Shown here piece by piece: positions 1-20,000 of a stretch of DNA of 20,000 nt (the stretch's first letter is position 1; each line of letters opens with the position of its first letter). The notes under the pieces are model-generated. The model saw nothing but the letters and a program-made list of their open reading frames with translations, did no database searches and was not told the origin of the DNA. Source of the DNA: Jimgerdemannia flammicorona (taxonomy: Eukaryota); the NCBI GenBank assembly GCA_003990765.1, contig RBNJ01000010.1, positions 46,507-66,506 on the forward strand, written 5' to 3'. A program made the translations under genes and the position numbers.

Positions 1-2940
1 ATTTCATTCCATTACCAATGTCAAACTTAATTAAAGGAGCACCACCCAGTAGTGTACAATTCTATCTCCACATTGCTAGGTCCCAAGCCACCTCCCCTTC
101 ATTCCCCTACTAACGAATTCCAATATAGTGCACCCCCTCTGCTATCCCTCACCAAAATCCTTTATATCATAGTTGTTCAGTGTTCTGAAGTCCAACCAAT
201 AAGAGGAGATTGCCAGTTGAACCTCTTAGTGATGACTGCCTCTCCCAGATCTTCTGCAGCAAGAGAACCCAACCACCTCCTCTCAACTCTACTGCACTCT
301 TTAGCCACCATGCTCTTAAGCAGTATAACCATTTTGGAAAGTCCACCAGCCCAAGACCACCTCTTGCCACCAGTAAGGACAAGGTCTCCCAACCAATCTG
401 ACTCCTTCTGCCAGCCCAAATCCATCCCTTTGCCAACTTCATCAATCTCTTCACTACCTAGACTGGGAAGTCCAGATGATAAGCCAGATACCACAGCTTT
501 GGCAGCCAGTAGATATTCAAAATTGAGACCTGCCCTGCCAGAGAAAAGTGCCTTCCCCCCCAACCCTGCAGGGCCTCCTCCCAGATTCCAATTCTCTGCT
601 CTCACCAAAGCCTGGGCAGAACTGACCCATAGACTGACAAATAGATGCCCAAGTACTGTACTGCCTCACTGGTGGGGATGATTGTTCCTATAACTTCCCC
701 TCCCACCAGACTATTGCCTAGCACTATCATTTCACACTTGTGCCAATTCAGCTTAGCCCCACAGTTCTCCTCATACTACTTCACTGTCTTCTTAAGCTCT
801 TCGACATCAGTGATCGATCCCAAACCAACCACCATGTCATCTGCAAAGGCCCCAACTTTCCACTCAATGTCAAAGACAGAGAGCCCCACTATCCTCTGCC
901 TAATTCTGTCCATTAGGGGTTCCAGGGAAAGAGCATACAAAATGGGGGACAGTGGGTCCCCCTGGGGCACCCCCCTACCCAAGGGGAATGCAACCCCTCT
1001 ATGTCCATTATACATGAGTGCAGCCCTACTTCCTTCCAGTAGGCTGACCATTACTGACCAGAATTGGCATGGAACTCCTGTTCTATCTAATACTTTCACT
1101 AGCCAAACTCATTGCACCCAGTCATAAGCCTTCTCCTGGTCTAAGAAGACTAGATGCCCACCCAGTCCACAGGCCCTTGCCTCTTCAATAACTCCATGTA
1201 CCCAGGCTGTGCCATTTCTAATGAGCTGACCACCCACAAATCCCCTCTGCTCAACACCCATGACTTGCTGGGCCACCTTCTGTAGTCTTGCAACCACCAC
1301 CTTAGTCACCAACTTTCTGTCCATATCTAGCAACATTATCAGTCACCAGTTCTTCCAATCCTCTCATCTTCCTTTGTTCTTATAAAGCAGTATCACCAGC
1401 CCAAGATCCTACTCCCCCACCCATCTCCCTATCTATAGGATAAAGTCACACAATGCCATTATCTCTCCCATTACACCTGGGACTCCAACCATTTGCTTCC
1501 AGAAGTCCCAGGGCAGACTATCCTCCCCAGGTGCCATATCTGGTATTATCGCAGCAAGAACCTGGTGGATCTCATCCTCCTGTACAGGCATCACCAGGTC
1601 ACCTAGCCCCTCTACTGGTGGTGGGTACCAATCCTCCAATATTTGGTCAATGGCAGCAGCATCTGCCCCACCCTCCTCCTCACTCCACAATTCACTCCAT
1701 CACTCCTTCAACAATCCAAGAATGTCCTATACACCATGTACTAGTATACCATCTGAGTCAAGTACCCCTTTCCACTATTGCTGTACCCTTCTTGTCCTAA
1801 GGGCCCTTATAAGAAACTTGGAAGACCTCTCCCCTTTCTCCAGATTCTGCTAACAAAGCCATGCTGCCAAGCTTTGTACCCTTGCCTCTTCCTCTTCCCA
1901 CAGTACCTATTGTAGTTCCCCAACCTCCATCTTCACTCTCATTAATCTCCAATCTTCTTCTTCCTCCAACATTGTCAGCCTTGCCCACTCCTCCAGGAGC
2001 CTAGCCAATCTAGTAGAAGCCCAATGTACTCTTCACCTCCTCTGCTTCCCTGCCTCCTTGCCAGCCTCACTCCAGTAAATCTTAGCCATCTCCTTCATCC
2101 TCATTCACCAAACCCCAACTGAGGCACCTTCCTGCCACTAGTTCTCCACCCTCAGCTGAATATCTTTAGCCCACTCATCCCACTGGGTCTTGTCATCTAA
2201 CAAAGAGGAATTTAGGCACCAATGTCCAGGCCCATCTCCACTTCCCTCAAAGCACCCCTGTCCCAAAAGCCCCCAGTGATCCAACCATGGACACCATTCC
2301 ACCTCCAGCAACTTCCAAGCATCTAGGCCCCAGCAACTGGCCATCAGAATCCAGTCAATCCTTGTCCCCAGGCCCCCTGCCCAATGTGTATAAACCCTCC
2401 TATCCCCCAAGTACTCCCTACCAGCATTTACTAGCACACTTAGTCTTTCTACTTCCTCCCATACCACCAGCTCTCCACTCCTACTCTCAGCACCCTGTCC
2501 TCCATCTGTTCTATCCATCAGTATGTCCTGAACTATATTGAAATCCCAAGCATATCTACCCCAACCTCTGCAAGGATCCCACTCTCCTGTAGATCTTTCA
2601 CCCAATCTACACACTCACTCCATATAGCAGGGCAGTAACAGGAGCCAACTGTAACTGGCTCTCAGCCTGCATGAATCCACTCATCCCAGACCAGTCTCTC
2701 CTCCTAGCTCCTCTCCCCTCTGCCTTTCCAAACCAGAATCCCAACCTTGCCCTTCCAAATCACCACACCTCTCCATTCCTTTGTCCATTTCATCCTATTG
2801 GAATCATCCTCACACCTGATATCCTGCAAGAGAAAGAGATTGGCCTTCAATCTCTTCATCCAAGTAAAAATATTCCTACATCTAGCCATGCCCCATAACC
2901 CATTCATATTCAAAGAAAAAATATTGGTTGTATTGTTCAT
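1..2940 (-). pseudogene. LINE ORF2 remnant (APE endonuclease + reverse transcriptase)
   Basis: Endonuclease motifs: IFSLNMNGL..LFLLQD, YCP, (G)DFN with a frameshift near 2547, TRIDWIL, WLDH. RT motifs: APGED, QRGFVGG, LDQEKAYDWV, GVPQGDPLSPILY, FADD, YLG. Post-RT L1/Tx1 motifs: LPKLWY and GGLGLVD. Mostly one reading frame interrupted by stops. Confidence 0.93.
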
Positions 2941-2959
2941 AATGAAATATGTTATGTTA

Positions 2960-4993
2960 TCAATCGATCTCTACTACTCTATGTTCATCTCCTCCTGTGC
3001 TGTGTCCAGATTATATTCCACAGCCACCTCTTTCTCTTCAGCCCTCTGAGCCTCCAATCCAGCCAGTAGGTCATTCATCTCCCCATCTGCCTTCTCCTTG
3101 AACTCCTCTCAGTATTTTAGGCAGGCCTTCTGCCAGAGCTACAATCTATAATGCTTGTTCCAGCAGTATTCAGCCCTCTCTCCAGCAATGACTACCATCT
3201 CTGCCTCCCTCTCTTTATCCACCTCATACCCTTCCTCCTCCAGGTACACTGCAAGAATTTCTACCTTCAATGCCTTCATCACACCATCTCTCTGTAGTAT
3301 CCTTGCCTAATGCTCATCACCCATCACTCACAAGTCCACCTCCCCCAACTCTTCTGCTGCAGGTTATTCATCATCTGGTACATCCAAAGTAGGTTCCCCA
3401 CCTCCTTCCCACTTGGAGTTGCCAGCCTCCCTCCATTCAGCATTGTGGTATCAGCCCCAGTACTTGCAGACTCATCCCATACCTCTAGGACATCCACCAG
3501 TTCCTCCTCTCCAGCTGCCACCACCTGTCTCCTGTATGCTACCTCTGGAATTCCAAATTACACCCTCTGGGCCCCCTGCATTGGCACATTCTCTACCACC
3601 CTGTTTCGGGAAGCTGGGCCTTATCTGATAAGAGAGGTAGGGGTAGGAGAGTCCTCCCAGTCCACCTCCCAAACCTTTAGTGTACCATCAGTATATGGGT
3701 CATTACTAGGCTTCTCCTTGTCCTCCCCTGCCTCCTTTCCAGCCTTCCCCCCCCCCTTGCCAACCCAGACACTCACTTTGGCCCCCCCTGTGCTCTTCAA
3801 CTTGCTCACATCCTCCAGTGGTCTGTTTTCCAGCTTAGCCAGCAGCTCCTTCTGTCTCTTATACCCCTGAGCCCTTTCCCACTACTTCTTGTCCACTCAA
3901 ATCCACTTTCCATCTACTACCTCCAAGTGTGTTAACTCCACAAAGGCCTCTCAAGCCTTCACTCGCCTCTCTACAGTACCACTTAACTCTTCTAGTGCTT
4001 CTAATAAATCCTCCTCCTCCTCCTCACTTCCCTTCACCCTTGTCACCTTGCACAAGATTGCTCTCCAAACCATCACTGAAGGTCAGTCCCTTGTCTTCCC
4101 AGTAGCTTCTTCCCAGCTAGCTGAATCCTTACATCTATGTCATCAGTCCTAAGTGAGGTCTCTTTCCAGACCCTGAATCCGATATCCACCACCTCTCTAT
4201 ATTCTGCTATGACTTCCTCAACTCTCCTCCTTGTCTCCACTACTGTCACCATAGACACTCCTTTCACCAGCAGTTGGACCACCCTGGGATCTCACTTCAG
4301 GCAATGTGCCATCAGAACACACACCTCCCCAACTACCAATCCAATCTTCAGTGCCTCCTCCAGTGGTGCAGCCTCCTCAAAACCCACCTCCACTCCCTCC
4401 AGTCTCTTCAATAACTTCACTGACATGGCTCCTGCCACCTGCTTAGCAATGAGCCCTAGCATCATTTTTACTATCACCACTAAGCCCTGGAAGTACAGTA
4501 TAACCATGAATACCAAGATCAATTTTTTGAGTAATGGGGCCACTGCCAGGCCTGTCACACTATCTGCCAAATCTCCTTGTCTTCCAAGCCTCAGCTGCTC
4601 AGCCTCACTATCAGCCATCACATCTGGAATTTTTTCCAGATTAGCAGTCCCATTGCCATCAGTAGTTACACTCCCCCCAGCCACTACTCCCCCAGCTCCA
4701 CTGTCCCCCCTTCCAAGGGCTACTCCCCCATACACTGCTGCCTTCTCAGTCTCCTTGCCCCTTTGCAGCCAGCCCTCCAGCCCTGACACCTACTGTCTCC
4801 TCTTTACTGTCTCCACAAAGCTCACCCTCCCAGACCCTTGGCCTTCACCACTACCTCCACCCCTTCTATGTCCACCTGCCAGCAGCCCCCTCATGCCCCC
4901 TCCCAGGCCTGGGCCCCTCTCCACCTGCTGCCAGTCAAAAGCACTTGGGCCACCCTACCCAGTATGCACCTCAGATTACCTGTCAGTCACCAT
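2960..4993 (-). pseudogene. LINE ORF1 remnant (3' end approximate)
   Basis: ATG at 4993 is in frame with ORF fragment 4292-4789. N-terminus is Gly-rich with an SFVETVK motif resembling the SY/FAxxVK motif of L1/Tx1 ORF1. RRM-like segment at 4073-4282 (VIAEYREVVDIGFRVW..TDDIDVRIQL). Lies directly upstream of ORF2. Confidence 0.65.
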
Positions 4994-5088
4994 GTTGTTA
5001 GTCTCTTTTCTCCAAAAACGATGTTGTAAGTGCTTTTCAAAGGTTGTATAACCTGAGTGGTACCAGAGAAAGATGTAAATACCAGAGT

Positions 5089-6103
5089 TCAGTCTTTGAC
5101 TAGAATGGTGACTTGATTGATGGAGTATAGGTCAAGACTAATGACTTCTTCTGATTGACATTGAGAGATCTGGATCTTCAGATGAAGCTTCTTGATCTTG
5201 AGTTCAGATTGACTAGTGGTAGGGTTGATAGATATATCTTTAGACAATATAGTAACTGGTCTTGAGAGTTTGCTAGTCTTCTTAGGATATTTAGTTACAA
5301 TGTGTTCTGTTTGATAACAGAAGAAATAAGCTCTAGATTTCTTTAGATAGTCTTTTTTTTCTAGAGTAAGCTTGGTATTCTTTTTATTTATAGCATCTAG
5401 GTCCATTAGTGCTGGACCAACTGCTTTGGGTTGGTTCTTATAATAGTTCTCAAAATAGTCCTTCTTATAGTGCTCTGGTTCAAAGTAATTATTAAAGATA
5501 TGTAATGATATCAAATCTATTGATAATTCTCATAGCTTTATTGAGGATCTGTAGCTCTTTTAACTTGACCTTGACTTTTGTATTTCCTTTCAGATCTTAA
5601 ATATAGTGGTCTATCTTTTCATCTTTAGATATTACTAGTAGTTTAAGTAGAATTGACAGAAATTATATATTGTAACTTTGTACAGACTTGAGTTGCTTGA
5701 TATTTGCTAGTTTATCTCAGATTAGCTTAGTAATATTAGCAGACTTGAACTGCTGAAAAAGGGCCTCTTTGAAGGATTTCCAATCTTAGATTCTTGTATT
5801 TGAATAGATAGTAGTAGTTATAATATAATTGTATTATTAAATAACTGCATTTCCTCAGAGAAGTATAGTAGCAAATTAGACTTATATATCTTCTTCTATT
5901 CTTATAAGTTCAAAGTATTGGTCCAACTGAAAGGTCTATGCATCTGTGGTCAGTCCTCTTTAGTGACTATTGAAGGTATCTAGTTTGAGTAACTTAAAGC
6001 TAACTAATATAGTAGTAGGATATAATGTGGCTGCAGTTCTTGTTTTCTAATATTCTAGTTATACTTAAAGTAGTTAAATCTGATAGATCATAGAGATAAT
6101 CAT
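5089..6103 (-). pseudogene. Ty3/gypsy LTR-retrotransposon gag remnant, heavily mutated
   Basis: Reading through stops gives KLDTF..DA*TFQLDQYFEL..FATILL*GNAVI** (the WW codons are now TAA TAA at 5834-5839), then SVQSYN..DEKIDHYI, GPALMDLDAI, and a decayed CCHC knuckle YFFCYQTEHIVTKY at about 5288-5328. Confidence 0.85.
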
Positions 6104-6210
6104 TTCCTCTAGATTGACTTGTAGTTCTATACTATCTACTTCTTTTGTGGTAGAGAGGTCTGGACAGTAAGCTGATTCTCTATAGCTTATTTTGTACTTA
6201 TATGACTAGT

Positions 6211-6733
6211 TGTAACTAGTTTATAAATTTATATGAGATTTCTTAATAAGGTAAGATATAACTACCTACTGCTATCAAGTATAATAGTTTTAGTTTCTTT
6301 AAGAGAAAGCAGCTAAATCTAATAGTTCTAGTAAATTTAAAGTAGCTCAAAGAGATACTTGTAGATTTAAGTATTCTTAAAGGAATTCTGAGAGAAAATA
6401 TTCTAAGCTTTATTTATATAGAGAACAAGAATATTTATATATATAAGATCTGAAAGAAAGATCTAGAAGAATCTTAGAAAAGAAGAGAAAAGCCAAGAAA
6501 TAGATTTTTAGTAAAGATGACTAATAGTATTCTATAATATTTTAAAAGATTCTATAATTAGCTAAGATAAGATACTTAGTACCAAAAAAGATAAGAATGT
6601 TTTTATGATATCTTGATGCTAAGAAAATATTTCTAGGTATTTAGAAGATGCTGGAATATAGTAGAATATTTAAGAAAAGATAAGAAAAGATTAGAGAAAA
6701 GATATAAAAAAGTATTAAGACTAAAATATAACT
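6211..6733 (-). repeat. Probable 5' LTR of the gypsy element (outer boundary uncertain)
   Basis: On the minus strand it ends in GTTACA (6211), followed by AC-TAGTCATA, which looks like a TGG-type PBS mutated to TAG. TATA-like tracts at about 6411-6445. Lies upstream of gag. No second LTR in the window to confirm it. Confidence 0.45.
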
Positions 6734-6805
6734 GTGAAATTATTGCAACTATATATACTTTATCTTATATTGATCTTAGTATCATATATATCTAATACTC
6801 TCTAA

Positions 6806-7073
6806 TCATAATACAGAATCAGTTTATAATAATCTGTATAAGACATATATACTTACTTATATTTGGTCTCAAGACTACAGTAGTATAGAATTTTATAATT
6901 ATAATTGAGTCTTCACTACTATGATATTAAATCAGTCTATAATGATCTATATAGAATATATCTATTTTGCACCTTATCTCTAGACTGTAGTAGTACAGGA
7001 TTTTATAATCATAGTTTAGTATAGTCTACTATAATATAGAATTAATCTATAATAATCTATATAGAACATATCT
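6806..7073. repeat. Degenerate tandem repeat, ~110-113 bp unit, ~2.5 copies
   Basis: AATCAGT(T/C)TATAAT(A/G)ATCT(G/A)TATA-like block at 6817, 6930 and 7040. AGACT(AC/GT)AGTAGTA(T/C)AG..TTTTATAAT block at 6872 and 6982. Confidence 0.75.
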
Positions 7074-7793
7074 TATATCAATTATCTTCACTATTATATA
7101 ACTTTTACTCCCACCCACCTCTCTATTTATATATATATATATTATATATTGAGTTCTTTGAAACTAACTGATATAATATATTTAAGACAGAATATTTCTC
7201 ATATATACATTTGTCCAAATATATAAATATATACTTATTTAATTTATTATTATATATAATTTGATATAAGGATAACAGCTGTGAGAGAGTATAGGTTATA
7301 TAAGATGAGAATTTAATAATAAATTCTTCAGACTTAATCTAGTAAATAGACTAAATCAATAGACTTCTCTTTATATCAGAAAGTAGATTAGAGTAAAATT
7401 AGACAAAACTCATAATCTCCTAAATAGTGGCTTTAGAGTAGGTATTTCTCCTAAGTATTGTAATTTTTTTTTTTTAGAATTAAGTAGCTCTTGGTAGACA
7501 TATCTCTTAAAGTATATTAGGCAGACTTATCTTTTGCTTTTGAACTTTTTGGACTGAGGTTTATTCACTCAAATCTCAGAAATATTTTATATAAATATGA
7601 TTGCTATCTAGTTGCTATCAGAGTAATTATAGAATATACTCCTTTCTCTACTATCTTACCAATTACAAGATTTGGTAGACAACCTTCCAAGTCTACTTTC
7701 TATAACTAATATCTCCTCTACCTTGAATTGGTTTGCTATATCTATTGTAGGATAGTAGAAGGGAGGCAATGATGATAAGTTGTCTCTTTATTA

Positions 7794-8020
7794 TAGTGAC
7801 AGCCAAAACTGTAACAATATTTAGTTATTTTTTATATATAATTATATTATAGCTTCAATATAAATACAATAAAATCCAAATTTTTACCATTAATAATATA
7901 GTATCTTAGCTTTTGAATAGTATATTTTTTATTTTATTTGGATAAATATAGATATTAATATAACCATTTTAAGTTATATTACCATTGTTACAGTTTTGAC
8001 CCTCTTGGCCATCCAAATCT
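7794..8020 (+). repeat. Left TIR of the Tc1 element (227 bp)
   Basis: Reverse complement of 9167-9393 with 10 substitutions and no indels (manual alignment). Confidence 0.96.
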
Positions 8021-8131
8021 GTTTGGGTTCACCACATGCTATTAAGTTGGGCTATAATTATCCACTTTTACTACAGTGTTGTTTCAGACATTCTTTACTA
8101 CTCTATGGTGCTTTGCCATCATTTTCAAGCA

Positions 8132-9151
8132 ATGAAAAAGCTTTCTGTCGACATTCATAACCATATCATCCACTTACTGCAATCTGGTTTATCCACATGT
8201 AAGATTGCCAAAGAAACCAATGTGAGTGTGATGACAGTAAACCATGTAAAAACGGTGTATTGCAACAATATTCCTTCATCAAAAGGTGGTCATCCAGCTA
8301 TGTTTTCAGCCCAGAATGAAGCATGGATTACCTGCCAAGTTATAATTGGCAAAGCAGATAATGTCACCAGAGTCATAAAAGCCCTTCAAGAAAGTGGCAA
8401 AAAGGCGAGTCTTAGTATGATAAAACGAATGCTCTGAAAGACTGGCCTCAAAGCATACGTAAAGCAAAAGAAACCACTTTTGCTGCCTCACCACATAAAG
8501 GTGCGCTATGAATTTGCCATGAAATACAAGCATTGGACAGTTGCCAACTGGAAAACCATTGTGTTTTCTGATGAAATGAAGATTAACCATTTGGGCTCCA
8601 ATGGATGCAAATGGATATGGCATAAATCAGGCAGTGGTGGAGAGCTCCAACCAAACCAGGTGACTGGAATGCTAAAATTCAGTAGTGGATCATTAATGCT
8701 TTGGGGATATATGACATACAAGGGCATTGGATATATATGCCAAATCGAAGGCCGAATGAATGCCGAATTATATACTAGTATCCTTAGTGATAAATTGCTT
8801 TGAACGATCAAGTATTACAAACTTAATCAAAAAAAGATCACCTTCCAACAGGATAATGATTCCAAATATACATCCAAAATGGCATGCGAATGGTTCAAAA
8901 ACAACTCTATCCACATGTTAGACTGGCCAGCACAATCGCCAGACTTCAACCCCATCGAACATTTATGGTGTGAACTTAAAAAATGGTTGAATGCATACGA
9001 TGAACTACCTAAAGGAATGCTGGAATTATGGGAGTGCATACAGCATGTATGGAATAATATTCCTAAAGATGTTTGTATCAAATTAATTGAAAGTATGCCC
9101 AGGCGCATTGCAGCAGTATATAAAGCCAAAGGTAGATATGTTAAATACTAA
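8132..9151 (+). pseudogene. Tc1 transposase, 339 codons, two premature TGA stops (8435-8437 and 8801-8803)
   Basis: ORF fragments 8036-8437, 8480-8803 and 8879-9151 share one frame. N-terminal HTH region, GGHP (from GGRP), KKPLL, VFSDE, FQQDND, WPAQSPDFNPIEHLW. Exactly 34 residues lie between the second D and the E. Confidence 0.96.
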
Positions 9152-9166
9152 ATAAAAATAAATAAG

Positions 9167-9393
9167 AGGTTTGGATGGCCAAGAGGGTCAAAACTGTAAC
9201 AATAGTAATATAACTTAAAATGGTTATATTAATGTCTATATTTATCCAAATAAAATAAAAAATATATCATTCAAAAGCTGAGATACTATATTATTAATGA
9301 TAAAAATTTGGATTTTATTATATTTATATTGAAGCTATAATATAATTATATATAAAAAATAACTAAACATTGTTACAGTTTTGGCTATCACTA
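9167..9393 (-). repeat. Right TIR of the Tc1 element (227 bp)
   Basis: Inverted copy of 7794-8020. Confidence 0.96.
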
Positions 9394-10452
9394 TAGTATC
9401 AGATCAGTATCTTCTCTACTTTTTTATAATTTCTAGTATCTTTAGCTATATTTAGAGTATACTCATTTTGGTGTAGTACTTTCTTTCTTTTGCTATCATC
9501 AATAAGATATTATCTGAAGTATCACAGGCTATATATAGAGTTGGCCAATCTTGGGTATCAAGTGCTAGTATAGATTATCTACAGATCTTCAATATCTATA
9601 GTAGAGCCCTCTGAGCTTTGGTGAGCTTCTCAGTAAGTGCAGTTCTGCCATAGATGACTACTTTTTGGATAGAGTCAGAATGGGAGGGGAGATGGCCATC
9701 ACAGATAAGAGAAAGAGTAATTATAGTAAATTAGTAGGATACCAGACTGGGGGCAGTCATTAGAACTGAGGTAAGTACTGCATTGGTGGGGCCTTCTGAT
9801 TGTTATAGGGTAGTTAGATAGTAGATATTACTCTTGGCTTCTTTTAGCAATTCATGAAGTTGGGTCCTAGTTATTGAAAGAGATTGGAGGGCCCAAGACT
9901 ACCCATTTTAGATATCTTGACTACACTTAACTGGAACTGGAAACTGATATAGTAATGTGATTGAGGCTCATAGGCTTGAGTAGTAGAGTATTGGGGGTCT
10001 TCTCTCACCTTACATATAAGTTCTTTACTTATCTCATCTGAGAGAATCAGGCCCTACTTACTGTGCCATACTTTGATAACAATTTTTCTTTATCTGTCAT
10101 TCTCCTTGGGGTAGCAGAGGCTATTCTATTTAGCTTGGGTGTGGCCTTATATATATGTTGGGGTTTCAGGCATGTACCTTCAGTTGTAGGCATATGGTTA
10201 TTCCCTCCTGGTAGTAGAGAGAGCATAGTGTACAGAATGAGATACAGGCAATAATGCCCTACTATATCTGATATGGTTGAGCTGCTAGACAATAGCTAGC
10301 CTAGGTTAATGGAGATATAGTGCTTGGGAGGTAGTGAGGGAGGGTTTCAGCCTATATAGTCTAGGTTCTCTTCCAATAAAATCCATGAGACTTTGGGTAG
10401 GTTAAAAAAAAAAAAAAAGATAATTATAGAATGTGCAGTAAGGCTAGTTTAG

Positions 10453-10563
10453 AAAAGTGTTTCTTGTAAGACAGGTGTTCTGCTTGAGATGAGTATTCCA
10501 GTTGGAACAGGTGTTCCACTTGGGATAGATATTCCAGTTGGAACAGGTATTCCACTTGGGATG
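10453..10563. repeat. Tandem array of ~6 x 18-bp units with 36-bp higher-order period
   Basis: Units start at 10453 (degenerate), 10471 ACAGGTGTTCTGCTTGAG, 10489 ATGAGTATTCCAGTTGGA, 10507 ACAGGTGTTCCACTTGGG, 10525 ATAGATATTCCAGTTGGA and 10543 ACAGGTATTCCACTTGGG. Confidence 0.85.
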
Positions 10564-10709
10564 AAATCAATATGCCTGATTTGGTACACCTGGTTATTTA
10601 TACAAATTGTAGTGCATGTGGTTAACTATGTGGGGTAACTATGCTATGTGTTCTTTGTACATCATCTGGCTATATTATAGTGTTCGCTCATCACACTAAT
10701 AAGGTCACG

Positions 10710-10742
10710 ATTGCCTTATGATTGCCTTATAATTGCTTTATT
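10710..10742. repeat. 3 x 11-bp tandem repeat ATTGC(C/T)TTAT(G/A/T)
   Basis: ATTGCCTTATG ATTGCCTTATA ATTGCTTTATT, read directly. Confidence 0.8.
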
Positions 10743-11214
10743 ATAATGGGTGCTGCAAGAGATGTTCTAAAGATTAGTCTCACTCATCGGTTACTGTATC
10801 CAAATAATTAGTTTGCTTCCTTTTACAGCTTTTCACAATTGATTTGTTTTTTCTCCTATCTCTCTGGGCGGGGGTGGGAGCTTTGTAAGATCTCTAAATG
10901 ATAGCTCGATTGGGAAGTTCAAATACTCCAAACATTGTATTGTAATTACACTGTGATCAGATGGGGATAGCCTTGGTGTGGCACTTTCGCTTTGGGCGAT
11001 AACAGGAGTTGAAACAATAGGAGCTAGTGCAATAGACGTTGAGAATGTGCAACAGTTTTATATCCAATAGTTGCCGGGTCGTATCCGCGGAGACGTATAT
11101 ATATACTATTGAAAATTCGATGGCACAGCGTTTTGGTCGTTTAACGTTCCAAACCAGAAGTTCACATACATATTTTCTTAATTTGGCACGATATACATTG
11201 TCTATAACTGGTCA

Positions 11215-11750
11215 TTACACAGCATATTTGGGTAACTTTTCTGTGCTCACGGCACCAGGGTTATAGTGGCTAGCAAAAAAAAAAAAAAACCTGTGTTCGA
11301 GTCTGCACCAATTCCGTCACCGATGTGCTCCAAATAAACGTAGATCGCATACTTGCAAGGTGATTTTTTCTCTTGACCATGATCTGGGACCCCTTTTCGA
11401 ACGTAAAAGATCATTTCCAGATCCAGATTCAGATCAAGCAACCCCAATCAATACTTACGTAATAGAATCCGCGTGATGTCTGTGCAAATACCAGGGCGGG
11501 TTGTTTCGAAAATTATTGGTGTGGCGCCCTGGACCCATTCTGTCGTATCTCTTAGCAGCGATAATGCTATAGATCTAGTTCGCATGAATGGTCAATAGTT
11601 GAGAGTATTTGGTGGACCCAGTAATGTGCCTCCGTCCACAAAACTCAGAGTATATACAAACTTGAGCTTCCCATTTTTCTGTCGGCTCGGGCAAGGGGAC
11701 GACCACGAAGTGGCGCTTGTATGAACTACCAGTGATCAGTGATAAATGGG
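11215..11750 (-). CDS. Candidate small multi-exon gene or gene relic of unknown function; 5' end unresolved
   Basis: Three consecutive intron-like segments: GTTTGT..TAG (11661-11575), GTAAGT..AAG or CAG (11458-11393 or 11384) and GTATGC..TAG (11352-11270). Sizes are similar to the introns of neighbouring genes, and the spliced frame stays open to TAA at 11215-11217. No homology recognised. Confidence 0.3.
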
Positions 11751-12737
11751 CTAAGGACAATGTCGACCAACTTTATTTGTCGGTTTTCACCCGTTTTTTT
11801 TTTTTTATTTTTTTATTTTTTTTATCTCAAACATTGGGATGTCATAATATCCCTGTCCTGATGACATACAAAAAGTACCGACATTTCATAATCAAAATTC
11901 TTATTCTCGACGGATTGTCCAACCACAAAGAAATGGGTTCACTCGATCAATATCTATTCGCCGCTCTGTAGGGTTTTATGTGCATATGCGTTTTCTTTTG
12001 TTTCTCACCCTAGGTTTCTCCACGTTTTCTCGCCTCTACTTTTGGCAAAGTTATCCATATTCGTCTGACTAGCAGTACGACCTAGTTGTCTCGGCAATGT
12101 TGACAAGCCGGTTACACCAGCGGATACAAAAAAACCGGCATCACGGTTCCATAGGTCCATGTATGAGATCGAGTGTCACAACTCAAGGGTTCTGCTGTTG
12201 GATAATTCACGGTTGTTCTTGCAAAAAATGCCCGTGCAAATTACAGCGTCGTTGGCGTAATCGTACGTTTTATTTTTATACCACGCCATATTCGTCATTT
12301 CGACATTTCTCGAAACACTTTAATGTATTGTTGTTGTCGGTGGCTACCGATACTGCTCTCGACGATTTTTGGGGTTCTCGGATGATACATTTTCTCCAGG
12401 AAAATGATTTCTTCTGTGAAAGCCCTTGCTCTACGGAAAAACAAACCCGATGCGAGGTCAGACCCGCCATGCTAGTCCAACTCTTTATGGCAAATTCGAC
12501 CAAAAAGACATGATGCATGGTGAAACCAACCAAACTTCGGCTCAGAAATTGCATGTCCCATCAAAAACATCAAAACCCTTTCTGGGAGAAAATGATCAGA
12601 CTGTTTTTTTTTTTTTTTCTCGGACAATGGTTTGCTATGCAGCGATCCTAATTTGCACAGGATTGCTGTTCTTGGCCAAAGGGCTCCACCGCTTCGAGAA
12701 CTCACTTCCTTGTAAGCTTCCTATCCGACTTGTTAAA

Positions 12738-12769
12738 GCCTCATTTAGGGTTTGCCTCATTTAGGGTTT
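12738..12769. repeat. Perfect 16-bp tandem duplication GCCTCATTTAGGGTTT x2
   Basis: Read directly from the sequence. Confidence 0.85.
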
Positions 12770-13354
12770 GGTTCCGTCGCGATGTCTTCAATTTCTTTCA
12801 TTTCCGATGACTCAGTGGGCCATTTTGTCCGATCGCAAGGGCATGTGAATAGTCCCAGCCTGGCTTGTTCCGGCCGTTTTTCGCTTGAGAGACATGTGGG
12901 CAACATTCATCAAAAAGCCGAAATTGCTGCAGGTGCAGAAAATATATTGAGAGATGTAATGATACTTCTATTTATCAATGAGCGAGGTGTGAGACCCAGA
13001 CATGGATACAGACAAACGGCGTACAAAATCAGGAAGTATACAGCATAGCGGTAGAACAAGTGGTCCCAGATAGTTGAAGGTTCCAATGAACTTTGCACGC
13101 GGGGATATTCATAGTTAAATGGAAGCTATATAACCCAAGATGCCATATGTACAAATTATTCGAGACAAGAAAAATTAACAAAAAGAAAAGAAAAGCTTTT
13201 GTTGGTAGGTTAGTCTACTTGCGCATCGACTAAGGCAAAAAATTATCTTATGAAGGAGAGGAAGGAGTCGAAGCAGCAGTGTAGAATTGTTCATAAGTCA
13301 TCGATAATAAAATAACCGAATGTGGCTCAGAAACGACCTCCGTAAGCACCGAAT

Positions 13355-14734
13355 TTAATAGTGGCAGGCGCTTCCGTTCTGCTTTTCAAGTCCCATCATC
13401 TTGGAAGGGGCGTCACCTGCATGGAGCATCGAGGCAGAATAGGGTGCCATTTGTGGGTAACCATTGGGAACTCCGTAAGGTTGTGGAAAGGCTGACGCGG
13501 TCGGTGCCCCCGTTTGGAACGCAAGCTTGACCAGCATCGGACCCGAGGTGCGCGCCTGTTGAGGGCCAATATGTAAATGCTCCACTCCAGGCAACGAGAT
13601 GGGCCGAAGGGTGATTTGTTCGGGCTGCTGTGGGGAATGATACCCGTTGGGCGAGTTCGGCACGGAGTAGGTACGAGGAGCTGACGTAGGGTACATGCGC
13701 GGAGAGCTGGGGAGCGAACAGGGCGATCTGGGGAGTGCAGGTATCGACAGGTTAAACTGATGGTGAGGCTCGAGCGTGGCTGCCGGGGTCAGTGTGTCGG
13801 CGGAGTTGGGATGCTTTTGGTACCGGGTGTATATTCCGAAGGGGCTTGCGGGATCGACTGGTTCGAGATGAATCACCGGGACCGAAGAGATGGCTGGTGC
13901 AGGGGACGTCTTGTCAGTGTCCTCATTGGACACTGATTTCTCGACTGGTTCTGGAGTACGCGGACTAGATCCGTCTCGAGTAACCCCCAGTTCCTGACGT
14001 AATGAGCGATTTTCAGATTGCAGTTCCTAAATTGACATATGTCAGTGAGATTAGATTTGGAAGAGTGATTGAAATGATAATCTAGAGGACGAAGGAGACT
14101 AACCTTGATATGCTCCAACGCCAGTCTCAAGATGTTGCCCTTGTTTGGCTTCTGGCCAGGTTGGAATGCGTTAGGCACAACCTCGGAGATTTCAAAAATT
14201 GTGTGGTTAATATTGTCTCGGCGGCGCCTTTCCACGTAGTTGTGGTTTTCACGACGACGCTTGAGACGCTCCATCGCAACGTTGCTATCCAAGCTATTCC
14301 TGTAACGCAAAATACCAAATATATTTATATTGGTCAGATCGATGACTGATAATGACGTATTTTACATAATACCGCCGTACGCACCTGTTCAGAATATTGA
14401 CGCCATTAACTTTGTACGTGGTATTTTTCTTCGCCTTCGGTTTCTTCTTGGTGGCCGTCTGAGGCGACAGATCAGGCGTGAAATTCAGGAACAGTGGCTG
14501 ATTGCTATTTATGCGTTCCTTGATATCAAGTTCATCATCATCGGACACTTCTTCGTCATCTTCAAACCGGGGCGAGGAGGCGCGGGAGGAGGGCGCCGAC
14601 GAGTCATAGTAGGTGAAATCGTAGACAGATGGATTGTGGAGAGTTGGGGGGTGCGAGGCGGTGATGGTGAATTGGTGTTGTCCTTTCGAGAAGGTGTTAG
14701 AGAACGTCATGGTGGAGTCGATGGCAGGAGACAT
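13355..14734 (-). CDS. bHLH(-ZIP) transcription factor, USF/MiT-TFE/Rtg3-like E-box binder, 405 aa; exons 14734-14385, 14299-14104 and 14026-13355
   Basis: Basic-HLH RRRENHNYVERRRRDNINHTIFEISEVVP..KPNKGNILRLALEHIK is spliced to a short zipper ELQSENRSLRQEL. Introns are GTGCGT..CAG (85 nt) and GTTAGT..TAG (77 nt), each with a CTGAC branch motif. Phases are consistent (350+196+672 nt). Confidence 0.93.
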
Positions 14735-14787
14735 CCTAGGCTAGTTTGAGGGTTTTGCTACAGGAGCGGGCCCAGTGCGGGGCGGTA

Positions 14788-14794
14788 TTATATA
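14788..14794 (-). promoter_or_regulatory. Putative TATA box of the bHLH gene
   Basis: TATATAA on the minus strand about 54 nt upstream of the ATG, in a GC-rich context. Confidence 0.45.
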
Positions 14795-16640
14795 GGAGAG
14801 GGCGTTTGTTAGTGACAGATGGAAATCAAGGAGTAATAAGCCAGATGGAGAAATACGAACACATGCGCCATTTTATTTTATTTTTTGTCCTTCTAGGAAT
14901 GGACGGTCCGTTTAGTCAATTTGTCGGAGCACATGGCTAGTTTTGCTCCAAACCGCACCCTGATAATTGGTGGTACAGCTGGACGACGGGACCGTGTAGA
15001 TTGTAGTTATTTTTGCCCGATGAAGGATAATCCGTTAAAAAAAGAGATCATCTGACATAGCCACAAATGTCGGTGACCACCTGGATTTATGACGAGTATT
15101 CCGTATTCCTTGCACGGTCAAATGCCGGAAATTTGAATCCCAGCTAACCTGTTTAGAATATATGTATAATCGTGCTGGAAATACTATATCGGCGACACTT
15201 ATTCTGTAACACTACATTACATAGGAGCTGTGGATCGGTAAGTACATGTCCACATCGAAAAGCTCCAAAGTTCTGGAGCACAAGACAAATAGGGTGCCAA
15301 CAACGATCGTCATGTTTATACGGCGCCTGCAAGTAAACGGGCCGCATAACATCACATGCACCAAGCAATGAACATTCATTTCACAGTCAGCTCAGCCCGG
15401 CTCGGGGCGCTTCTTCGATGCTTCTGCCATTAAAGAACGGCATTCAAATCGGGAATAGGTTACAACGAAGAGAATATGGCAAAACAAAATATATTTAGTA
15501 ATTCACTAAGGGACGATTCCAACCCAGACATGGGTTCCGAGGCTTTCATTGACAAAGTGCGGAAGCACCCTGACGCAGCCGCATGATTTGTTTTGCGCAC
15601 CTGTGCCAAATTTCGTGAACATTATCATGTGCATAATTTGGGTGAAGGCAACAAATAGAAACGCCGCGCCCGGCAATTTGTGGTCGGCCATCTCGCATCT
15701 AAGCCGATCCGAAACGTGTTGAAGGCACCATACAAACGCGGCTGTATTTCCCAAATCATCGTTGGCAAAATTGGTTCTTGTCCTCCCAAGGCACCGAGGG
15801 TCATAGCCTTTCCCGAAATGTCCGCACCTGTCATTGGCCCAAATCGAACATCATTTGCTTGCTAGCCACTGGGAATCCAAGCCGTTTGGTGCAGTGGAAG
15901 ACCCCATTTCTATTGGAACGAATATACCCAGTTTTAGTTTTAGTTTGTTTTGTTTTTGGTTTTTTGTTTTTCCCTGTAGCCTTCCATTTGATATCTGCCT
16001 TTGATTTAAACCGAGCCTCACGGAGACAAGCGCCATTGGCTAAGACGTTATGCAGTTTGTGTCATATTGAATCTGCGGTATGATGTGCGCCGAAAGAATG
16101 GAAAAATGACGGGAAGGACTGGTAAAATTACGCGCACGTCCTGCTCCGTCCCGTCGGGCCCACGGCGATGGTTTGTAGTGTCCGTGCTCGGTTGTTGACT
16201 GACGTCAGGGTGGAGCACGTTTTACAGTTGGGCCCAGCCGCCTTTTGAACCATAACAAGGAGTGAAGCGGTCTCCTCACTGCAACACGCATTCCCAGGCA
16301 GCGAGATGATTCGGCAGAAGAGTGCCATATGCGGGGAAATAATTACGGTTTACAAGATCTGATAAAAACGGAACTAAATAAATGCGGAACCAAAAAAAAT
16401 CACGCTTTCTTTAGCTCCGTGGTGCAGTACAGATTCCCTGGACTGGGCAGCTTCTCAATGGTCCATAGCACGCGGACATCAAGATGCTAAATGAATGTTG
16501 GTAGGCCGCTCGATGGTACTTGCATGCGGACACAGACTGATGTTTAGCGAGTCTCCTCACTCCTATCCGACCTCGCGGTGATCGAGCCAGATACGCCGAG
16601 ATGGTCAGATGTAACCTTGATAGCATCTGTGGACATGCTC

Positions 16641-16642
<2 letters not shown>

Positions 16643-16672
<30 letters not shown>
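16643..16672. repeat. Poly(T) homopolymer, 30 nt
   Basis: Read directly; the longest of many A/T tracts in the host half. Confidence 0.9.
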
Positions 16673-16673
<1 letters not shown>

Positions 16674-18833
16674 GTGCCAGCGCCCAGGTATATTTGCGTG
16701 TATTACCAGATGGTCGGCCCAACCGCAGAGGTATAAATGCCAACAACGACTGTTCCAGTTGGTATTTCTGTTGCAAAATGGTGAATCAGGGAGAAAAATG
16801 ACAAGATAGGGCCACATGGTCCGTGCCGATAAAGTTATTGGAGGGGTGTCCAGATGTTCGATGACCGTGGGGCGTATAGAATTAAAAGACGCAATATATA
16901 GATTAGAGTAAAGATAAACATAAAATATCCCGAAATCCACACACATGAAGATAAGAAAAATCACGTTCAAAAGCTGCTTTGCACCGCTCGAAAAGGCAGA
17001 TGGCCAACAGCTATCATGCCATACACAAAAATTATCCATGTACCGTCCGCGCCCCACCCCACCCTACCCGACTCTCGTGAGACGCCACGTACGCGTACAA
17101 ACATCAATATAAGTTTGGGAAACCTGATTTAATGTTCCGTGGCGCCCATCTTTCCTGTTGGCGGTGTCACGAATCGGGGGAGGGAAACACGATCGCTCAC
17201 ACCCCGCCGATCCGCACCCCTGTAGAAGGCCACTCTATACTCCGAATCTCCGAATGGCGCGATGAGGGATGGGACGGAGATTATGTGTGGATTTTTTTTA
17301 TTCCGATTCCTATTTTATCACCACGAGGACTTTAGCTCCATTCCCGAATTATCCACGATGCCCGAATTCCCCGCATCGTGCTTCTCAAGATTGCGTAACA
17401 CTGGGCCCCTGAGGCAATGGTGGGTACAGCAAAACGCTCTGTCCCCCATCCTCTGGCACCGTAGCTCCCCACCTTCCTCTGTAAAGTCATCGAGTCTTTA
17501 AGTCATTGTGTGAGAGTATCGTATTCTATCCCCCGTCGAATTCTTACGGCTCCAAGGCATCAGGCCATTCGTCGCCGCTCTAGCCTGGAATGGGACTAAT
17601 AGCCACGATGCTTGCATCTGGGTTTCCAAAGCCCCTCGCGCCATAATCCGGTTTGAAAAAACTTGAAGCATGGACCGGCGTTACGTCATATTGGGTCATG
17701 ATGATTTGAAGTCTGTCCGTGGCAACTGGAGACCTCTGCTAAAGACACCATTTTGGTAACCTGGACTCGAGCTCGAGCAATAAAGGTAGATCGTGCTCTT
17801 CCTGGTTACTCTGACTTGTTGTCGCACGGCACCTCGCTTATTGCACATAGCAGCTACTCGAAAAAACGCCTCTCGGACAAAAACGTTGCCCTTAGTGATG
17901 CTCTTCAACACCCTCAAACCCTCATACCCCAAACGTGAGGATACAAGCCTCATTTGATGATAAATTCTGAATCTTGTAGTACAATTGCTTGGGAATCGGA
18001 ACCCGTCACCGGAACAGAGGGATACCAGGGTTCGACGGCTAATAAAGAAGAAAAACGAAGGATACACTTGACGACCAGTTACGACCATTTGGCAATATAT
18101 CATCGTAAGGGTCATGCATCCTACAGTGTGGGATGCGACATGACAAGCGGGCACTGACAGCAGTGAGGATGCAATGGGCTCTCTCTTCATGCTAGAAAAG
18201 ATGTCCAGTTACTTTGTTGGATTGGTTTGAGGGAAAATACTTTCTTGACCCCTAACGTTTTTCATAAAAAAAAAGTGCGTGTTTTTAAGTGTTGACGAGT
18301 TTCGTCTCATAAGCGAAATGAAATTTAGGAGGCCAACCGTATCGACCCGACCAGCCAAATCAACCCCACCCCATTTCGGTTTCCCAATTTTAGTCCACTG
18401 TATTTCTACAACTGTTTATTATTGTAAACGACATAGAAAGCATGGAGGAACGGCATGCTGTTGAACAGGCAATATCTGCGCCATCTAATTATACACGTAC
18501 TCTTACTGGCCTAAGAAAACAAAAAAAGGTGGAAAATTTAAATTGCATGTGCGTTAACTATTTCGCAGTTACTTCAAGGTGGAAAAGTATGGGAGACGTA
18601 AAAAGATGAGGGAAAAAAAAAAAAAAAAAATCTTCGACACAATGTAATGCAGAGTTTGTTCAGGACTGTTGAGACAAATCTAGGAAATCCTGTAAACATA
18701 TAAAAGGAACTTTATAATAACTCGAGAGGAATAACAGCTAACGTGGGGTCCCCTCCCTAAAAAGAGCAATAAAACGAGAACTCTTAAAGAAACCGGAAAA
18801 GTCCACACCGTCACTTTCCTACCGAACCCTCTT

Positions 18834-19985
18834 CTAGACCAGATCTCCATCCTCAGCCTCCAAATCCACCGCCTCGATCTCAAAATCGCTCAGACCCCGC
18901 TCACTCCCCCCATTCGCGCTCACCTCCACCTCCTCCCCATTCCCACTCTCAACCTCTTCCTCCACCACCACGGCCTCAACCTCGCTAGGCTTCCCGCCGC
19001 CGCCGAATCCCATCACAACCTCATCCCACTCGACTTCCTCCTTCTCAACCCTATTGGCCTCAGCCTCCATCTCCTCGGGCGGAATCTTGGTCATCGACAA
19101 TCCCATCCTCTTCGGGTTTCTTCCGGTTTCCCTGTCCCTTCCCCTTCCCCCTTCCTTTTCCCTTTTCTCCTCCTTCCTCTCCTTCTCCACCCTACTCCTT
19201 CTCTTCTCGCGCACTCCCTCCTCCTCCAGGCCAGGCACGCTCGGTGTGCTTCTGCTCCTCACGGGCGCGGGAATTGATAGCGGCCCAGGACCGGGAGGCG
19301 GCGGACGAGCGTCGGCGAGGTCGTGCGCCGACGTGAATACTAGGCCCTTTCGCCATGCGAATCCCGACCCCGTCACTAAGTCGTGCTCCCCCACGGATGA
19401 CCGGTGGTGCCGTGGGTGAAGCGGCGCAAGCAGATCAGCGTTCGCTTGCTCGGGGGATTGCGCTTGCTTGTCTTGATCGGCTTGTTGAAGTGTCTCAGCT
19501 AGACGGCGAAGGCGGAGGCGATAGATGATCGCGTCAATCGTTAACTCGATTTGAAGGTGATTCTTCATGATTGAAACCTCTGGTGTAGGGGTGGCAGGAA
19601 AAGGTGGAAGCGTGAGAATCAGAGGCGTAAATGAAATGTACGGCCAAGCAGTCCCCTAAAAAGATGAATCGCAAAACTCACTTGGCCACGCCGCCTGCTC
19701 TCCCCTAATCGTAGCCTCAACAACCATCTTCGGCGTCGGATTTGACAGGATATTCACGAAATCTGCGTATCCAATATCGGGCACGATGGTGATATCCCCA
19801 TAGTACCGTTGTGACATGATAGCCTGAACCTTGCAGAAGAAGGATGGGAAGATGCCCAACTCCGTCACCTGGTGGCATCGATGCTGGATCTCGGATCGAG
19901 CCAGAAACATGGCGAACGCCGCAAACTCGTGCAGCTTCGATGGGTTTAGTGACTTTTGGAGGAACGGGATTACGTGCGGGTTCAC
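18834..19985 (-). CDS. TGL4: 3' part of a patatin-like triacylglycerol lipase (Tgl4/Tgl5/SDP1 family); exons ~19985-19682 and 19579-18834; 5' part outside the window
   Basis: VNPHVIPFL..SQRYYGDITIVPDI..ILSNPT..GEQAAWP is spliced (GTGAGT..CAG, 19681-19580, 102 nt) to KVSIMKNHLQIELTID. This matches the conserved C-terminal block of the family. The symbol is family-level only. Confidence 0.88.
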
Positions 19986-20000
19986 TTTTTTTTTTTTTTT

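Follow-up and report, generated by a model that had tools for sequence, protein, structure and literature searches.

What removes nearly all CG dinucleotides (CpG) from one half of a fungal locus and spares the other half? We address this question for a window of 20,000 nt from the genome of Jimgerdemannia flammicorona (Endogonales, Mucoromycotina; assembly GCA_003990765.1, contig RBNJ01000010.1, positions 46,507–66,506 of the forward strand), in which each element is represented by one copy; all coordinates below are those of the window. The window falls into two halves, a nest of transposons at 1–10684 and ordinary host sequence from approximately 10.7 kb onward. The left half is a nested transposon graveyard that includes a long interspersed nuclear element (LINE), a relic of a Ty3/gypsy retrotransposon, and a Tc1/mariner DNA transposon, and the loss of CpG is confined to this island. 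A sequence-only reading had proposed C-to-T hypermutation restricted to repeats and resembling repeat-induced point mutation (RIP); its restriction to repeats is upheld by our counts. With regard to the process itself, the best explanation is probably cytosine methylation targeted to transposons and followed by deamination, and the strongest evidence comes from the Tc1/mariner copy, in which changes from G:C to A:T (GC>AT) are in excess on both strands and more than half of them lie at CpG.

CpG across the transposon nest and its flank

The window contains the following features, given with coordinates and, where assigned, strand:

1–5050, minus strand: LINE, a retrotransposon without long terminal repeats (non-LTR), cut by the start of the window; coding strand G-rich
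641–1357, minus strand: reverse transcriptase (RT) domain of the LINE (Pfam RVT_1, E value 8e-28, residues 1232–1470 of minus frame 2–5050)
5092–5911, minus strand: Ty3/gypsy gag relic, 3′-truncated where the LINE begins (Ty3_capsid, E value 6.2e-7; Retrotrans_gag, E value 0.0018)
5912–7788: unclassified AT-rich, CpG-free DNA upstream of gag, 22–30% GC, with tandem repeats of about 110 nt at 6805–7073
7789–9398, plus strand: Tc1/mariner DNA transposon (DDE_3, E value 1.6e-12; HTH_Tnp_Tc3_2, E value 2.6e-11)
7789–8023 and 9164–9398: Tc1 terminal inverted repeats, 235 nt each, 95% complementary
8126–9148, plus strand: Tc1 transposase open reading frame (ORF), 341 codons, no frameshift, TGA stops at 8435–8437 and 8801–8803
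9399–10684: unclassified CpG-free DNA, 38% GC, probably further transposon debris
10685–11040: transition zone with sparse CpG, 8 in about 350 nt
11041–20000: host DNA with CpG at expectation
13358–14734, minus strand: three-exon basic helix-loop-helix (bHLH) transcription factor gene, matching a named J. flammicorona protein

We compared the number of CpGs in each segment with that expected from base composition. The LINE has 9 against 249.0 expected, 5051–7788 has 0 against 50.6, the Tc1 interior has 15 against 40.5, and 9399–10680 has 0 against 44.5, whereas host DNA at 10700–20000 has 507 against 511.6, an observed/expected ratio (O/E) of 0.99. Counts of GpC, which served as a control, are normal in all five segments (233, 44, 56, 43, and 497, respectively), demonstrating that the CpG deficit is far beyond chance. 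The nine CpGs remaining in the LINE, exactly the number that had been estimated, are at 114, 802, 815, 1550, 2965, 3607, 3964, 4180, and 5019. CpG is absent across 5051–8148 and again across 9105–10684, returns at 10685, 10708, and 10788, and is dense from approximately 11040–11075. The profile per 500 nt is concordant, with a step at about 10.68–11.04 kb (O/E 0.38 for 10501–11000) and values of 0.7–1.26 in host DNA from 11041. The sequence-only reading had placed two CpG-free blocks at 5050–8020 and 9167–10680 and abundant CpG after 10680. Both blocks are free of CpG and the flank is as described, but the limits of the blocks require revision because the Tc1/mariner element, with its inverted repeats, extends over 7789–9398, and part of each block is consequently Tc1 repeat.

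Symmetrized over both strands, the O/E of CpA/TpG is 1.05 in host DNA but reaches 1.25 for the LINE and 1.44 for the interior of Tc1. The nest, thus, combines a strong deficit of CpG and normal GpC with an excess of TpG/CpA, the composition expected from decay of 5-methylcytosine (5mC). Within the window, unique DNA and genes are spared; noncoding host DNA adjoining the nest has 39–45% GC and a CpG O/E near 1. When the layers of the nest are ranked by CpG O/E, Tc1 comes first (0.37, 38% GC), followed by the LINE (0.03, 50% GC) and by the block at 5051–7788 that contains the gag relic (0, 27% GC; hereafter the gag block).

Direction of change in the elements

To polarize changes in the Tc1/mariner copy, we used 20 transposase homologs with 48–56% identity (55–56% for the best of them) and considered columns conserved in at least 80% of the sequences. 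Nearest-codon inference for the 40 columns at which the copy differs gave 16 G>A and 11 C>T changes against 3 A>G and 0 T>C, along with 5 transversions and 7 ambiguous cases. CpG accounts for 15 of the 27 GC>AT changes and other cytosines for 12 (CpA 5, CpC 4, and CpT 3). The replacements attributed to CpG loss include R>H, R>C, and T>M, as CpG>TpG/CpA changes produce, and both stop codons are TGA at positions where some homologs have Arg. All 15 CpGs that are left in the element map to its interior (8149–9104). At the amino acid level, 25 replacements are explained by GC>AT changes only, 1 by AT>GC only, and 8 by transversions only. As a control, each of the 20 homologs was treated in turn in the same manner, and the pooled ratio was 52:33:84 (Fisher test, p = 4.5e-4 and 1.5e-4). 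The difference between 25:1:8 and the pooled ratio reveals a burst of GC>AT change specific to this copy that affected both strands, with over half of the changes at CpG. Frequent G>A is accompanied by frequent C>T on the coding strand of this DNA transposon, which places the process on duplex DNA and not on complementary DNA (cDNA).

The inverted-repeat arms of the element differ from each other at 12 positions, 11 of which are transitions, none at CpG, and one a transversion; in a purine/pyrimidine alphabet, identity between the arms rises to 100% over 232 nt. A predominance of transitions of the C:G>T:A type appears in Tc1 and its arms but not in the LINE, and the nest gives no uniform picture in this regard. 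The arms have 20–21% GC and lack CpG, and the interior has 38% GC with its 15 CpGs. This contrast between ends and interior brings to mind Phycomyces, in which 5mC is reported to be highest at the ends of transposons (PMC11258239; for this and all other papers cited here by PMC number, we draw on excerpts, and our statements are limited to them), but the arms may instead be natively AT-rich.

The LINE had been called C-rich, which applies to the plus strand; the element itself is on the minus strand, with a coding strand that contains 36% G and 13% C. The frame of ORF2 (2614 to 2) comprises 871 codons without a frameshift and with 21 stops, compared with 60 and 54 in the other two frames. These stops are 12 TAG, 9 TGA, and 0 TAA. 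GC>AT paths from TGG, CAG, and CGA predict TAG, TGA, and TAA in proportions of 0.56/0.38/0.06, whereas transversion paths (0.45/0.32/0.24) fit poorly, with a probability of 0.003 for 0 TAA among 21 stops. The relatives of the LINE RT are metagenome fragments that are 62–79% identical in HMMER alignments and 57–70% identical in tblastn alignments, which cover longer stretches. Using five of these fragments (57–70%, tblastn) and one more distant relative, we obtained 132 usable columns and polarized 8 GC>AT, 1 AT>GC, and 7 transversion changes specific to the LINE copy, and replacements of the CpG>TpG/CpA type (R>Q, R>H, and T>M) are present in it. The five close relatives pooled gave 25 GC>AT, 3 AT>GC, 15 transversion, 9 mixed, and 9 multistep changes. 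In these sequences, GC>AT far outnumbers AT>GC across the LINE family, yet transversions are common.

The LINE coding strand is also highly rich in purines and G (GC skew about +0.45), and Trp, Gly, Val, and Glu abound in ORF2. The related metagenome fragments have the same protein composition, which marks it as a feature of the family and not as damage suffered by this copy. A metagenome scan using the LINE RT yielded 127 stretches matching the pattern, one of which was confirmed (locus L001). This locus was rejected as a LINE relative, as it has 60–67% GC, normal CpG, and no tblastx match to the LINE. A cluster look-up of 10 proteins assigned none of the LINE or Tc1 relatives to an organism, apart from one distant hit in an alga.

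The gag relic contains 15 in-frame stops (11 TAA and 4 TGA) and one frameshift in approximately 310 codons, and together with the LINE ORF2 and Tc1 ORF, both without frameshifts, it bears out the earlier remark that indels are few. Two of its motifs, which we take to be a WW pair and a CCHC zinc knuckle, show what has changed. The WW pair is now TAA TAA at 5839–5834 of the minus strand, and the knuckle at 5328–5287 reads TAT-x2-TGT-x4(ending GAA)-CAC-x4-TAT, so that Cys1 and Cys3 have become Tyr and the Gly preceding His has become Glu. The codon changes that the sequence-only reading had listed (WW to TAA TAA, TGT to TAT, and GGA to GAA) are found in gag exactly as given. A search for gag homologs, with stops entered as X, returned 669 candidates and none with an E value of 0.01 or less; gag changes were, therefore, polarized at the WW and CCHC motifs only. 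Taken over the three elements, damage does extend beyond CpG, with GC>AT transitions at other cytosines in the Tc1 copy, in its arms, and in the gag relic, although unevenly.

The tandem repeats of about 110 nt at 6805–7073 have 75.5% identity in the native sequence, which rises to 91.8% after transitions are collapsed. One well-aligned pair of copies within 6808–7140 differs by 21 transitions and 9 transversions; the other two pairs (13:14 and 15:14) were left out owing to poor alignment with 34–37 gap columns. A search for a pair of long terminal repeats in purine/pyrimidine-collapsed sequence found none; its sole hits were the inverted repeats of Tc1 and the 110-nt tandem repeat.

Between Tc1 and the host DNA, 9399–10684 has no Pfam match. 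The G-rich CpG-free stretch at 9399–10403 is closed by a run of 15 A residues at approximately 10404–10418 that possibly represents the poly(A) tail of another non-LTR element, here on the plus strand, and a 36-nt unit occurs in two tandem copies just downstream (approximately 10493–10560). The transition zone at 10685–11040 could be the edge of a repeat or a further piece of one, or could reflect methylation that has spread into the flank.

Explanations for the loss of CpG

The explanation that we consider likely is the following. Insertion of the LINE would have interrupted an old Ty3/gypsy relic, and insertion of the Tc1/mariner element the neighboring AT-rich DNA. The host would place 5mC on such repeats and spare adjacent unique DNA; the marks would lie chiefly at CpG, with weaker marking of other cytosines. 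The enzymes would probably be a methyltransferase of the DNMT1 class for maintenance at CpG and, for non-CG cytosines, the DIM-2-like methyltransferase reported for Endogonales. Methylated cytosine would then become thymine by deamination, either spontaneous or assisted by an enzyme. Since methylated cytosine deaminates, CpG would be erased first as TpG/CpA, and CpA and CpC would follow more slowly. Arg codons (CGA) would turn into TGA stops and Trp codons (TGG) into TAG, TGA, or TAA, and the oldest layer would drift to about 27% GC. Published work reports that RID is exclusive to Pezizomycotina and that DIM-2-like homologs are present in Endogonales and Glomeromycota (PMC9963178), which, as far as the excerpt goes, favors this route of methylation and deamination. 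DIM-2 activity is also reported to promote C>T change in methylated repeats (PMC13297926).

Several points weigh against methylation and deamination. The share of transitions in the Tc1 arms (11 of 12) has p = 0.054 against a 2:1 expectation, and their CpA share, 7 of 11, lacks significance (p = 0.15). The non-CpG excess in Tc1 is modest, 12 GC>AT against 3 AT>GC changes and 5 transversions, and 7 of the 16 changes specific to the LINE are transversions, so that this element has not changed by transitions only. Ancestral states are those suggested by homologs with 48–56% identity for Tc1 or 57–70% for the LINE, and the non-CpG rates are, therefore, indicative only. With no homolog at an E value of 0.01 or less, the gag block contributes composition and motifs. 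Methylation would be read from its mutational footprint, and the candidate enzymes are those of published work on Endogonales. Early-diverging fungi are described as having largely replaced 5mC by N6-methyladenine (PMC13297926), and Mucoromycota are described as low in 5mC overall (PMC11258239).

Among the alternatives, the one that survives best, although we regard it as unlikely, is a true RIP-like defense, in which duplication would set off a mutator, possibly active in the sexual phase and possibly reliant on a DIM-2-like enzyme, that converts C to T in repeats in the order CpG >> CpA > CpC > CpT. RIP in the strict sense is triggered by duplication, is premeiotic, and acts above a threshold of length and identity; in Neurospora crassa, it depends on RID and DIM-2 and prefers CpA. 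We calculated the indices that the sequence-only reading had proposed, using the Neurospora-type thresholds (TpA/ApT above 0.89, (CpA+TpG)/(ApC+GpT) below 1.03, and a composite RIP index above 0). The composite index is positive in only 3 of 20 one-kb windows (5001, +0.11; 6001, +0.52; and 7001, +0.25), which together cover 5001–8000, and is negative in the other 17. The gag block as a whole has a composite index of +0.29, a TpA/ApT of 1.19, and a (CpA+TpG)/(ApC+GpT) of 0.90, compared with –0.51, 0.69, and 1.20 in host DNA. Its symmetrized O/E values are 0 for CpG, 0.77 for CpA, 0.81 for CpC, 1.68 for CpT, and 1.16 for TpA (host: 0.99, 1.05, 1.11, 0.86, and 0.71), and its surviving cytosines are 61% CpT, 28% CpA, 11% CpC, and 0% CpG, against 23/28/26/23% in the host. 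The many stops with almost no frameshifts are compatible with a RIP-like mutator, and the host flank, with its 39–45% GC and undepleted CpG, identifies the AT drift as specific to transposons.

The same indices do not extend to the rest of the nest, where the composite index is –0.70 in the LINE, –0.80 in Tc1, and 0.0 at 9399–10680. In the LINE and Tc1, the indices have the appearance of CpG decay alone. The main target is CpG, and a preference for CpA was not found. AT-rich low-complexity DNA can yield a positive composite index without RIP. Changes of the same strand type form runs in the Tc1 interior (9 runs among 27 changes, p = 0.03), which would suit a RIP-like mutator, but the signal is lost once the inverted repeats are included (16 among 38, p = 0.16). 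Outside the window, RID is known only from Pezizomycotina according to PMC9963178, and RIP signatures were not detected in Mucoromycotina as stated in PMC8647823, citing Venice 2020. A RID-independent, DIM-2-like-dependent repeat mutator in Endogonales, which would constitute an analog of RIP outside Dikarya that strikes any repeated DNA at CpG first and then at CpA and CpC, is a proposal that we consider quite doubtful.

Still less probable is an inherited composition, in which the LINE would already have been CpG-poor and the gypsy element and Tc1 arms AT-rich at insertion, either by evolution of the families or by avoidance of CpG. The support for this comes from the LINE. Arg codons in ORF2 are 53 AGR to 1 CGT, compared with 4 AGR to 19 CGN (19 of 23) in the host bHLH gene, indicating that much of the CpG poverty of the LINE is older than this copy, and its relatives share the G-, W-, V-, and E-rich protein composition. 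Where the relatives have Arg (28 positions), the window has Arg at 14 and Gln, His, or a stop at 9; where the window LINE has an AGR Arg codon (31 positions), relatives have His, Cys, Trp, or Gln at 11. These reciprocal patterns argue for long-running CpG loss in the whole LINE family, to which loss in this copy has been added. Inheritance leaves unexplained the 9 Arg positions altered in this copy, the copy-specific excess of GC>AT in Tc1, the nonsense codons at Trp and the changes at Cys positions in gag, and a CpG deficit shared by four unrelated element types, and loss at the level of the family would still require the same mutational pressure. Finally, editing of retroelement cDNA during reverse transcription by an AID/APOBEC-like deaminase, which would produce G>A on the coding strand and for which the gag examples noted earlier (all G>A) and the low G of the gag coding strand (13%, against 19% C) could be cited, is barely credible and is rejected because a DNA transposon, which has no RNA or cDNA stage, shows this bias on its two strands alike (16 G>A and 11 C>T), and the G-rich LINE coding strand is the opposite of what it predicts and CpG specificity is left unexplained.

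Host, related fungi, and significance

The sequence-only reading had assigned the DNA to a probable member of Mucoromycota, and the bHLH gene proves this right. Its match is [quoted passage not shown], with 100% identity over residues 117–182 and 99.6% over residues 181–405 in two cleanly aligned exons and with the residues of the first exon matching up to the intron; the next-best matches are proteins of Mucorales and Umbelopsidales with 63–77% identity. This match sharpens the taxon to Endogonales (Mucoromycotina), and the host is, thus, not a dikaryan species with known RIP, the outcome that had been named as fatal to the proposal. A Pfam search in six frames of the 9.3 kb of host DNA at 10700–20000 found no domain besides bHLH. 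This DNA also contains A/T homopolymer runs of about 30 nt near 11792–11823 and 16640–16672.

The closest parallels to methylation-linked decay are Tuber melanosporum, Microbotryum, and rusts (Amselem et al. 2015, PMC4352252), in which C>T change is likewise concentrated at CpG and confined to transposons. In that work, a CpG mutation signature tracks Masc2/Dnmt1 class IIA, and CpA and CpT signatures track RID; as in its fungi with DNMT1/Masc2-class enzymes, transitions here exceed transversions, and RID is not needed. Unlike those cases, the loss of CpG in our window is almost total (O/E 0–0.03), the host belongs to Mucoromycotina, and the footprint includes changes outside CpG together with an AT-rich layer whose RIP index is positive. 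With canonical RIP of Pezizomycotina, the locus shares C:G>T:A change in repeats, nonsense codons, few indels, and an AT-rich stretch past the index thresholds (5001–8000). It differs in that CpG and not CpA is the first target, that the LINE and Tc1 fail the indices, and that RID is reported absent outside Pezizomycotina (PMC9963178). The TpCpG/CpG hypermutation of transposons described for Basidiomycota, Pucciniomycotina among them (Horns et al. 2012, PMC3318451; PMC4352252), resembles our observations as a CpG-centered "RIP-like" signature without RID. That case (PMC3318451), however, comes from another phylum.

Within the same phylum, transposons and not active genes are targets of methylation in Phycomyces blakesleeanus (PMC11258239) and in Rhizophagus irregularis, where CG methylation is bimodal (PMC8647823). 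Phycomyces transposons carry 5mC in CG and CHH (H being A, C, or T), and the genome encodes DIM2 and DNMT1 (PMC11258239). Non-CG methylation of the kind reported for Phycomyces could explain the non-CpG decay in J. flammicorona, but methylation is reported there, whereas here there is a mutational footprint alone. In Zoopagomycota, signals from RIP indices have been reported against a background in which RIP was previously observed only in Dikarya (PMC11105155), and RIP-like composition outside Dikarya was derived from dinucleotide indices for 24% of the genome of Zoophthora radicans (eLife 2024, PMC11105155). That fungus belongs to another phylum and was assessed by the composite index only, whereas in our window 3 of 20 one-kb windows are positive and CpG loss dominates. 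For Endogonales, we found no report of CpG depletion or RIP-like mutation in transposons in a literature search that did not include Chang 2019 (on Endogonales genomes) and Bewick 2019, both of which are possibly relevant.

We rate the locus as an addition to a known phenomenon, transposon decay linked to methylation, of which the instance in Endogonales appears to be new. The Endogonales have the largest and most transposon-rich genomes in Mucoromycotina. That of J. flammicorona is given as 240 Mb (PMC7928374, citing Chang 2019). Near-total loss of CpG confined to transposons would point to cytosine methylation as a sustained genome defense in a lineage of the Mucoromycota, which are usually called poor in 5mC, and the 15 surviving CpGs of Tc1, with host CpGs about 1.5 kb away, provide natural test sites. 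Should the non-CpG component turn out to be duplication-dependent, this would contradict the statement that RIP signatures are not detected in Mucoromycotina, as given in the excerpt of PMC8647823, and would have implications for the time at which RIP-like mutagenesis originated in fungi. If Endogonales do possess an analog of RIP, repeat-directed C>T mutagenesis would predate the split between Mucoromycota and Dikarya.

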